Below are positions 1 through 1,647 of a stretch of DNA of 64,000 nucleotides, piece after piece. The first letter of the stretch is position 1. The number at the start of each line of letters is the position of its first letter. A model generated the notes under the pieces. The model worked only from the letters and a program-made list of their open reading frames with translations. It made no database searches and was not told where the DNA came from. The stretch comes from Myxococcota bacterium (GTDB lineage: Bacteria; Myxococcota_A; UBA9042; PHBI01; JAWLBL01), in assembly GCA_041687695.1 (NCBI GenBank), contig JAWLBL010000012.1, forward strand, positions 64,001-128,000, in the 5' to 3' direction. The translations under genes and the position numbers were made by a program.

Positions 1-580
1 ACTCGTGCTCTTCGTGCTTGACCGACAGGGCGTCGCCGTCGATGGCCTCGCACACGGCGCGGTACAGCTCGCGGTGCTCGACGAAGGTGCGCCACGCCTT
101 GCCGGTGCCGTACGAGTAGAACAGGCTCTCGGCGTCGTCCCAGGGCAGCGCGAAGGCGTCGCCGCCCTCGGGGACGACCAGGCCGGCGAGCTGGGCCAGC
201 GGGACCTGGCCGTAGCGACGGATGAAGCGGCGCACGGCCTTGTCGAGCTCGGGGTGGGGCTCGGCCGAGCGGGTGTGGACCACGGCGAAGCCGGGGGCCT
301 CGAGCCAGCCGCTGCGGTCGGGCGGGATGAAGGCGAAGTCGACGACGGCGCCCGGCGCGACCTCGGCCCGCAGCTCGATCTCGCCCTCGGCGCCGATCTG
401 CATCGACTGCAGGCGCCCCTCGAGGCCCAGCGCCTTGCCGAAGCGGGCCAGCGAGTCGGGGCCGGCGGTGGTGCCGGGGCGCGCGGGCGGCGGGGCGGCC
501 GGCCTCTCGGACACGGCCGGGGCCGCCTGGTCGGGGGCCTCGGGCGCGTAGCCGGCCAGCTCGGGGAAGAGCGTGCTCAC
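1..580 (-). CDS. Hypothetical protein running off the window edge; possibly a nitrogenase component-1-like (NifD/K, BchN/B, CfbD fold) partner
   Basis: Not in the ORF track. Hand translation from GTG 580, which overlaps the TGA of the NifH-like gene (GTGA), is open to position 1: MSTLFPELAGY...LYRAVCEAIDGDALSVKHEEHE. Family assignment is speculative. Confidence 0.6.
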   Translation of the reverse strand, partial: MSTLFPELAGYAPEAPDQAAPAVSERPAAPPPARPGTTAGPDSLARFGKALGLEGRLQSMQIGAEGEIELRAEVAPGAVVDFAFIPPDRSGWLEAPGFAVVHTRSAEPHPELDKAVRRFIRRYGQVPLAQLAGLVVPEGGDAFALPWDDAESLFYSYGTGKAWRTFVEHRELYRAVCEAIDGDALSVKHEEHE

Positions 581-1647
581 CCCAGCAGATCCGATGGGCT
601 CAGGTGCCGCGCCTCGTTGGGGAAGGCGCCGCGCAGGCGCGCGATGGCCTCGTCGACGCTGACCAGGCCCAGCCGGACGGCGCGGCCGCCGTTGTCCAGC
701 TCGGTGGCGAAGACGCGGCCGCCGTCCTGGGCGCCTCGGGCGCGCCCCATCAGGCGCGAGGACGACACCAGGGCGCCGGCGGCCTCGGGCGGGGGCTCCT
801 TGGCGGCCGCGGCGGCCTGCCCGCCCTGGGGCCGGATGAAGCGGCGCTGGGCCAGCTCGTAGAACTCGGTCTCGCTCAGCGGCGTCGGCAGCGGCAGGCT
901 GCTCGCGTCCAGCGCCCGCACGTCCTGGGCGATCTGCCCGTAGCAGCGCGCGATGGGCGAGGCGGGCGCGTGCTCGACGACGGTCATGCGGCGGTACTCG
1001 GCGTCGCGGACCAGCGGGTCGCGCGGGATGTAGCCGATGATGCGGGCGCCGATGAGGGCGGCGAAGCGCTCGAGCATCGCCCGGTCGGCGGCGTTGTCCT
1101 TGAGGTTGTAGACGATGCCCGCCAGCGCGATGCCGTTGGTGGCGTAGTGGACGACCGCCTTGGCGATGTTGTTGGCCGCGTACAGGGCCATCAGCTCTTC
1201 CGAGGCGACGATGACGACCTTCTCGCCGACGCCGCGCCGCAGCGGGGCCGCAAAGCCCCCGCAGACCACGTCGCCCAGCACGTCGTACAGCGCCACGTCG
1301 TAGCGGTCCGGCGACAGGAGCCCGGCCTCGTTGAAGATCTCGAGCATGCGGGTGATGCCGCGCCCGCCGCAGCCGACCCCCGCGCCGGGCCCGCCCGCCT
1401 CGACGCAGTCGACGCCCAGGGGCGAGCGGGTCACGATGTCGTCGGGCTTGACGCCGCGCACCTGCGAGATGCGGTCGACGACCGGCTCGATCATCCGCCC
1501 GCCCAGCAGCGCCACGGTCGAGTCGTGCTTGGGATCACAGCCGACGTGCAGGACCCGCTGGCCCTCGGCGGCCAGGCTGGCGCTGATCCCGGTGGCCACC
1601 GTGGACTTGCCGATGCCGCCCTTGCCGAAGATGACGATGCGCTCCAC
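577..1647 (-). CDS. NifH/BchL/CfbC-family Fe protein (nitrogenase iron protein-like ATPase) with C-terminal extension
   Basis: Motifs GKGGIGKST, GCDPKHDST, EAGGP, GVGCGGRG, DVLGDVVCGGF, MALYAANNI; both [4Fe-4S] Cys present. GTG 1647 (VERIVIF) preceded by a purine-rich SD. Confidence 0.92.
   Translation of the reverse strand: MERIVIFGKGGIGKSTVATGISASLAAEGQRVLHVGCDPKHDSTVALLGGRMIEPVVDRISQVRGVKPDDIVTRSPLGVDCVEAGGPGAGVGCGGRGITRMLEIFNEAGLLSPDRYDVALYDVLGDVVCGGFAAPLRRGVGEKVVIVASEELMALYAANNIAKAVVHYATNGIALAGIVYNLKDNAADRAMLERFAALIGARIIGYIPRDPLVRDAEYRRMTVVEHAPASPIARCYGQIAQDVRALDASSLPLPTPLSETEFYELAQRRFIRPQGGQAAAAAKEPPPEAAGALVSSSRLMGRARGAQDGGRVFATELDNGGRAVRLGLVSVDEAIARLRGAFPNEARHLSPSDLLG

Follow-up and report, generated by a model that had tools for sequence, protein, structure and literature searches.

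A Group VI nitrogenase-like operon of a Myxococcota bacterium and its possible link to radical-SAM-modified His-Gly-Ser repeat peptides

The window analyzed here, a 64,000-nucleotide stretch of a Myxococcota contig, begins within a three-gene nitrogenase-like operon of the order H-D-K, whose first gene, nflH (577..1647, − strand), codes for a 356-aa Group VI nitrogenase-like Fe protein, as judged from its open reading frame, Pfam and curated models, a phylogenetic tree, and Foldseek. The Pfam Fer4_NifH domain matches residues 3–267 of the product (E 2e-83). The gene starts with GTG, has a Shine-Dalgarno-like AGGGGG 6 nt 5' of it (1654..1659, − strand; a pattern match), and gave no match in a search for a sigma-70 promoter. 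Its stop codon is overlapped by the GTG of nflD (592 aa in full), the 5' part of which occupies 1..580 (− strand) while the rest extends into the preceding window and ends at G000:C12:62802, where the nflD stop is in turn overlapped by the ATG of nflK (453 aa; C12:62805–61444). The products of these two genes match PF00148 (E 8e-25 for NflD and E 1e-42 for NflK). A preliminary description of the window had taken nflH for a stand-alone Fe-protein gene; reading the preceding window overturns this, since two overlapping component-1 genes lie directly 3' of nflH, and the genome thus does hold component-1 homologs. In this 99.3% complete genome, nflH is the only strong NifH-type gene, and nflD and nflK are the only two PF00148 genes, with no further nifDK/ENB-type gene beside them or elsewhere; there are 0 matches to the NifB model TIGR01290 and no match to CobN/Mg-chelatase. 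The ECF sigma module reported upstream of nflH is indeed present, but its relevance did not hold up, as it has no homolog in the 82 loci compared; the neighbor appears incidental by this comparison, and control of nflHDK by it was set aside on the same ground.

NflH retains the hallmarks of an Fe protein: the P-loop (residues 8–16; 1600..1626, − strand), recognized from the sequence and its alignment, and both [4Fe-4S] ligand positions, Cys93 (1369..1371, − strand) and Cys129 (1261..1263, − strand), each invariant in 29/29 alignment rows, are intact as first described. The fold resembles that of Fe proteins (Foldseek E 2e-27, rmsd 2.2 Å over 274 columns). The KHDST (residues 40–44) and EAGGP (residues 83–87) motifs, earlier read as a mixed signature, are present, but they form the ordinary signature of NflH's own group: His41 is conserved at 90% or more among 21 alignment rows, and EAGGP also occurs in a Methanoperedens (CfbC-like) sequence and is therefore not BchL-specific. 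The extra C-terminal segment noticed at the outset (580..834, − strand; delimited by alignment and model) comprises, past the core, a low-complexity linker (residues 272–304) modeled as disordered and a helical module (residues ~310–356) modeled with confidence (pLDDT over 90). It is confined to six sequences of one subclade (the query, L003, L004, L005, P0156, and P0157); family and atlas searches gave no match to it, and nowhere else in the genome did a copy score above decoys. One may guess at a docking role. In L004, a predicted 149-aa ORF (L004:17704–18153), 7 kb downstream of the operon, weakly matches the C-terminal module (E 6e-6).

NflH scores below the cut-offs of all four curated models, namely nifH (278/394 bits, score/cut-off), CfbC (277/402), BchL (199/345), and BchX (176/331). 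In a 50-row tree (LG+G4), it belongs to a clade of 13 Myxococcota/Elusimicrobiota rows (98/93), distinct from the NifH/CfbC-like branch (98/99) and from BchL and BchX (100/100), and hence outside the true NifH clades. This tree retains 50 of 95 rows, lacking most Bacillota/Methanobacteriota rows, the long-branch L023, and MarH and IsrH; a 95-row tree made with a quick search only agrees with it, and monophyly of all 29 Group VI-like rows is recovered in only 15% of bootstrap trees. Most of the best 23 of the 80 loci matching NflH (L003–L025) bear titles naming Myxococcota, Deltaproteobacteria, or Elusimicrobiota; D and K genes adjoin H in most of the 23, and many have radical SAM genes; plasmid matches annotated as NifH are 38–47% identical to it. 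Both the model scores and the tree thus bear out the initial reading of a nitrogenase-like reductase outside nif, bch, and cfb. The word "uncharacterised" holds insofar as no function is assigned, but the family has a name in print, Group VI (Méheust et al., 2020). As described there, its NflH paralogs occur in Elusimicrobia/Myxococcales outside Groups I–V (bioRxiv 10.1101/765248), combine a P-loop and equivalents of Cys97/Cys132 with ~40% identity to NifH, and are accompanied by divergent D/K proteins with at most four of the six P-cluster Cys and by a radical SAM suite without NifB (bioRxiv 10.1101/765248; PMC13474568). The nflHDK locus fits this published description in its clade (in a tree built without that paper's own sequences), P-loop and Cys, divergent D/K with few cluster Cys, absence of NifB, and radical SAM suite, the latter comprising three genes 11–20 kb from nflH and a large cluster on another contig (C19). 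The locus is thus a member of the named family with a variant NflH extension and a scattered layout: it differs from the published Group VI in being a single-copy operon that lies outside any cluster, the closest radical SAM genes being 11 kb away, in the C-terminal helical module of NflH, and in the substrate proposed below, a peptide instead of a tetrapyrrole.

Together, NflD and NflK retain 3/6 P-cluster Cys: D Cys194 (kept in 140/141 homologs having a residue there), D Cys267 (148/149 homologs), and K Cys60, the last kept, like K His72 and K Asp73, in 16/16 sequences. In a profile comparison, D Cys267 aligns with the third cluster Cys of MarD/NifE; by motif position, we take D Cys194 and K Cys60 to correspond to NifD Cys88 and NifK Cys95, and the D profile has no Cys facing the NifE Cys that we take to be the equivalent of Cys275, the FeMo-co ligand of nitrogenases. 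A model of the D-K complex scores 0.88 against 0.01 for the best control, with at least 87% contact agreement between runs, and partner pLDDT of at least 90; it places the segments that contain the three Cys at the interface. The mark applied is reached by 116/157 solved pairs and 2/215 mismatched pairs, and NflDK probably passes because it resembles the solved NifDK/BchNB. These three conserved Cys point to a single [4Fe-4S]-type cluster between D and K, its fourth site being open or occupied by a non-Cys ligand. The pairing of an Fe protein with a component 1 having a simple [4Fe-4S]-type ligand set, and presumably the electron delivery as well, is shared with DPOR (BchLNB), COR (BchXYZ), and CfbCD. 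However, DPOR has three Cys and an Asp, whereas the NflDK ligands are split two (D) and one (K), and the host system differs from all three in its separate tree branch, the lack of a chelatase, and an extra domain on D. It also has neither a BchL/BchX-clade Fe protein nor three Cys on one N/Y subunit nor a genomic Mg chelatase, as DPOR/COR would, and it has two different component-1 genes, unlike CfbCD with its single D subunit. Nitrogenases of Groups I–III are set apart by the low NifH score, the three Cys, the absence of NifB, and the presence of only two PF00148 genes.

The first 140 residues of NflD are confidently modeled as an α/β domain (pLDDT 89), within which model and profile searches delimit an N-terminal accessory domain (residues ~38–139; 164..469, − strand) common to the radical SAM proteins of the system. 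It has no clear fold match (best Z 4.2, no Foldseek match at E 0.001, and, among the matches listed, no RiPP recognition element of the PqqD-like winged-helix kind), a result that does not establish a new fold. When its profile was run against the 60,891 genome ORFs, the best non-self match (E 5.5e-7) was the C-terminus (16345–16632) of a divergent radical SAM protein encoded in the window at 14800..16644 (+ strand), followed by three radical SAM ORFs (E 0.003–0.005), including one directly 3' of the peptide precursor HxsA4 described below, against a best E of 0.2 for reversed decoys. Conversely, a profile of the radical-SAM-cluster copies, its seeds chosen by the forward search, scores at least 10 bits on 53/153 D homologs versus 0/153 reversed ones, and only 10.8 bits on the host NflD. 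Homologs of the 14800..16644 gene adjoin H-D-K in L006, L007, L021, and L043. The link to the radical SAM genes 11 kb away, at first a guess, thus gains support from the homologs flanking H-D-K in relatives and from the domain common to NflD and the 14800..16644 product.

Two further radical SAM genes lie close by, a two-domain HxsC/HxsC4-like one (12928..14745, + strand; best NCBIfam match HxsC4, 133 bits against a cut-off of 500) and a fusion of two HxsC-like radical SAM domains to a Gfo/Idh/MocA oxidoreductase domain (18465..21449, − strand). Against a profile built from the enzymes of Elusimicrobiota clusters, they score 177 and 160 bits, respectively, within the 107–247 bits of the C19 cluster members and above the other radical SAM ORFs (98 bits or less), and they are probably dispersed members of the nflHDK/Hxs system by these scores. 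Co-directional with the radical SAM pair are, at 9348–12788 (+ strand), a glutathionylspermidine-synthase-like ATP-grasp gene, a lipoprotein-like gene with a Gly/Ser/Arg-rich tail, and a 217-aa gene, with no homologs near H-D-K in relatives. Directly after the Gfo/Idh/MocA fusion stands a 587-aa ORF (16696–18459, − strand) with CC and CxxxC motifs near its end and no Pfam match.

Since these radical SAM neighbors score best against HxsC4, His-Xaa-Ser repeats were searched for. No HxS arrays occur around the window or in two upstream loci; (His-Gly-Ser)n peptides adjoin H-D-K in L009 and L015, and another is encoded on host contig C19. The latter is a 112-aa HxsA4 precursor with 18 HxS units (G000:C19:27799–28137, or L092:11799–12137; 128.6 bits against a cut-off of 55), and it heads a cluster that extends to ~49200 and includes, beside an aKG-HExxH peptide hydroxylase (92.6 bits, cut-off 40) and a radical SAM-methyltransferase fusion, about nine radical SAM genes of the HxsC-like type. 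The genome further encodes HxsC4 on C19 (545 bits, cut-off 500), HxsB on C1 (532 bits, cut-off 370), and an HxsD-like gene on C19 recognized by BLAST only (39% over 94 aa); in all, 15 HxsC-like ORFs score at least 107 bits with the Elusimicrobiota cluster enzyme profile. Other members of the radical SAM/Hxs system were seen on C1, C6, C19 (162 kb), C42, C50, and C55. With HxsA4, HxsB, and HxsC4 above cut-off, an HXS-type system is present at the level of the genome (NCBIfam models HxsA4 NF038313, HxsB TIGR03978, HxsC4 NF038332, and HxsD TIGR03976). The canonical HXS system (Li et al., 2026, PMC13128918) is a four-gene unit whose periplasmic effector has five repeats, and 99.7% of its occurrences are in Pseudomonadota; it is described without a nitrogenase-like part, the word "nitrogenase" occurring 0 times in that article. 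The host shares with it the HxS-repeat substrate, HxsB, HxsC-type, and HxsD-like genes, but differs in its 112-aa precursor with 18 units, in its ~15 HxsC-like enzymes, and in its scattered genes: no four-gene D-B-C-A operon was found, the host Hxs genes lying on C1, C19, and elsewhere. Relatives include near-contiguous layouts, viz., HxsD-HxsB-H-D-K-HxsA4 in L015, HxsB-precursor-rSAM-H-D-K in L009, and precursor-rSAM-rSAM-H-D-K in L106.

The association of nflHDK with the precursor extends across genomes. Among 301 genomes of the window's own phylum (56 with and 245 without the K gene), the strict precursor pattern was found in 50/56 K carriers versus 47/245 non-carriers, the reversed-pattern control hitting 1/301. 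Inside the window's class and order, the pattern is present in 38/40 K carriers versus 12/18 others, and outside its class in 12/16 versus 35/227. A looser pattern gives at least three overlapping matches in 55/56 K carriers, including five of the six missed by the strict one, and the ten genomes behind ten closer loci all have HxS arrays (10/10). Such counts are inflated by kinship, kin not being independent, and the Fisher p values computed from them overstate the association, because the precursor is nearly class-wide: its start, HCSH(G/A)S, is carried by 50/58 of the genomes in the window's class and order, usually once per genome, and around the host genome it is thus more like a core gene than a mobile cluster. 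K and precursor share a contig in only 3/50 own-phylum double positives, and then 0.2–2.5 Mb apart. The 47 own-phylum genomes that have a precursor without a K gene imply that the reductase is at most optional for the pathway. In the second phylum, an Elusimicrobiota sample of 161 genomes drawn around one Elusimicrobia genome, itself one of the seven K carriers, yields the strict pattern in 5/7 carriers versus 7/154 others, with a sixth carrier found by the looser pattern; in 6/7 carriers, the array is on the K contig, 5–21 kb from K, inside HxsB/HxsD/radical SAM clusters. As for exceptions, neither an HxS array nor an HxsB match was found in the K carriers G171 (90% complete, with a divergent H-K-D set) and G460 (a 2.0 Mb bin), and G126 has an array without an HxsB match. 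The Group VI-like H-K-D set of G171 (G171:C25; L109:7479–10812) is possibly an exception or a separate subtype. K-type matches number up to five per genome.

The clusters also offer a view of accessory genes, through a census of 78 of the 92 called non-radical-SAM ORFs from 20 loci, plus 2; it is incomplete, having missed genes in the mid-GC loci L100 and L020 and in parts of L009, L015, and L109. Among the ORFs scanned, there is no chelatase or Hem/Cob/Bch enzyme; three genes in two clusters are of the TP_methylase family, and there is a B12-binding radical SAM gene. H-D fusion proteins of 770–870 aa are common in Elusimicrobiota clusters (L007:17209, L008:11369, L010:13783, L011:351, L098:7325, L102:2462, L103:2608, and L107:9721), the aligned ones being devoid of the N-terminal accessory domain of D. 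The HxsA4 leaders of L099, L101, L104, L106, L107, and L113–L115 have FLxSEEGK followed by a hydrophobic stretch, which we take to recall Flp prepilin leaders, and Elusimicrobiota HxsA4 clusters have weak A24 prepilin-peptidase-like genes (Pfam E 0.002–0.004). The host precursor is without the Gly of this leader, and the host genome has no BLAST match to the A24-peptidase-like, U32, or TP-methylase accessory genes. In L098, L102, L107, and L115, U32-family (UbiU/TrhP-like) proteins, SufS-like desulfurases, a PEP-utilising enzyme, and a diphthamide-synthase-like ATPase recur or appear; the U32, SufS-like, and other cluster genes suggest further tailoring.

From the company its genes keep, we propose that Group VI NflHDK is a reductase acting on a radical-SAM-modified HxsA4 peptide, a reading that we consider about evenly poised between right and wrong. 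NflH, judging from its family, would be the ATP-driven electron donor of the enzyme, its dimer passing low-potential electrons from the [4Fe-4S] cluster of Cys93/Cys129 to a single [4Fe-4S]-type cluster at the D/K interface with D Cys194, D Cys267, and K Cys60 as ligands. The substrate would be the (His-Gly-Ser)n core of HxsA4 after modification by HxsB/HxsC-type radical SAM enzymes, and NflDK would carry out a reductive tailoring, recruited via the accessory domain that NflD has in common with the radical SAM enzymes, within a host pathway scattered over several loci. The canonical HXS radical SAM enzymes add +8 Da (+C/−4H) to the HxS motif (PMC13128918), an oxidised type of product on which a reductase could act, and the up to five K-type matches per genome fit several distinct tailoring steps. 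Against a peptide substrate stands the fact that all characterized relatives of NflHDK, as reviewed, act on small molecules (PMC13474568). The more specific claim that Group VI comprises the first nitrogenase-family reductases of a ribosomal peptide, with ATP-driven reduction of radical-SAM-modified His-Gly-Ser repeats, at least 15 radical SAM enzymes, and core genes scattered across the myxobacterial class and joined by a shared undescribed adaptor domain, falls just short of an even chance in our estimation.

The co-occurrence and the shared domain would be explained equally well if NflHDK powered or activated the radical SAM enzymes of the pathway through that domain and left the peptide untouched; the three-Cys interfacial cluster could relay electrons, and the 15 HxsC-like ORFs (at least 107 bits) of the host genome also favor such a supply role. 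Radical SAM enzymes, however, are normally reduced by flavodoxin or ferredoxin, the precursor occurs in 47/245 K-negative genomes, and the several D/K paralogs per genome are hard to account for in this way alone, which leaves electron supply unlikely, if deserving of some weight.

Reduction or cleavage of a small molecule (a sulfur compound, building block, or cofactor), as by MAR or ISR, with an indirect or inherited association with the peptide, seems to us a distinctly unlikely alternative to peptide reduction. The D profile does have its best PDB sequence match in 9d9u/9fmg (E 2e-31), 9fmg being titled methylthio-alkane reductase, and the exceptions G171 and G460 and the scattering of genes in the window's phylum point the same way. 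Yet the MarBHDK and isethionate reductase systems carry a NifB-like component (PMC13474568), of which the host has no match; NflDK has fewer Cys, the Elusimicrobiota operons are tightly embedded in HxsA4 clusters, a pattern repeated in this second phylum, and the NflD domain recurs in radical SAM enzymes.

The function proposed in print for Group VI is synthesis of a tetrapyrrole-based cofactor (Méheust et al., 2020; bioRxiv 10.1101/765248), still given as a proposal in a 2026 review (PMC13474568), and a tetrapyrrole reductase making such an unknown cofactor would agree with the simple-cluster ligand set resembling DPOR, COR, and CfbCD, with the KHDST common to NflH and BchL, and with the three TP_methylase-family genes in two clusters and the B12-binding radical SAM gene. 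Nevertheless, borosin peptide methyltransferases are close relatives of the TP_methylase family (bioRxiv 10.1101/2021.12.24.474128), the scanned cluster ORFs (78 of 92, plus 2) include no chelatase or Hem/Cob/Bch enzyme, and the host genome has no CobN/Mg-chelatase match; moreover, the word "peptide" is absent from the main text of the 2020 preprint, so that the precursor was not weighed there. We therefore regard a tetrapyrrole role as very unlikely. Finally, a true nitrogenase, DPOR/COR, or CfbCD, for which the 38–47% identity to annotated plasmid NifH and the intact Fe-protein motifs might speak, is scarcely credible given the sub-cut-off scores with all four curated models, the separate tree branch, the 3/6 P-cluster Cys, and the absence of NifB, a third PF00148 gene, or a chelatase.

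In the open-access literature, our searches found no report of a connection between Group VI and HxS peptides. Group VI is the one major branch of the nitrogenase superfamily without a tested function, its tetrapyrrole role standing as a proposal (PMC13474568), and a gene-encoded candidate substrate makes this function directly testable. The host genome is useful in this regard because it has a single H, a single D, and a single K gene along with only one strict-pattern precursor; it also shows that the association holds even where the genes are not neighbors. If the proposed reduction of the modified HxsA4 peptide is true, peptide modification would join the chemistry of the nitrogenase family and tie it to the HXS family, the simplest member of which is an anti-phage system (PMC13128918).
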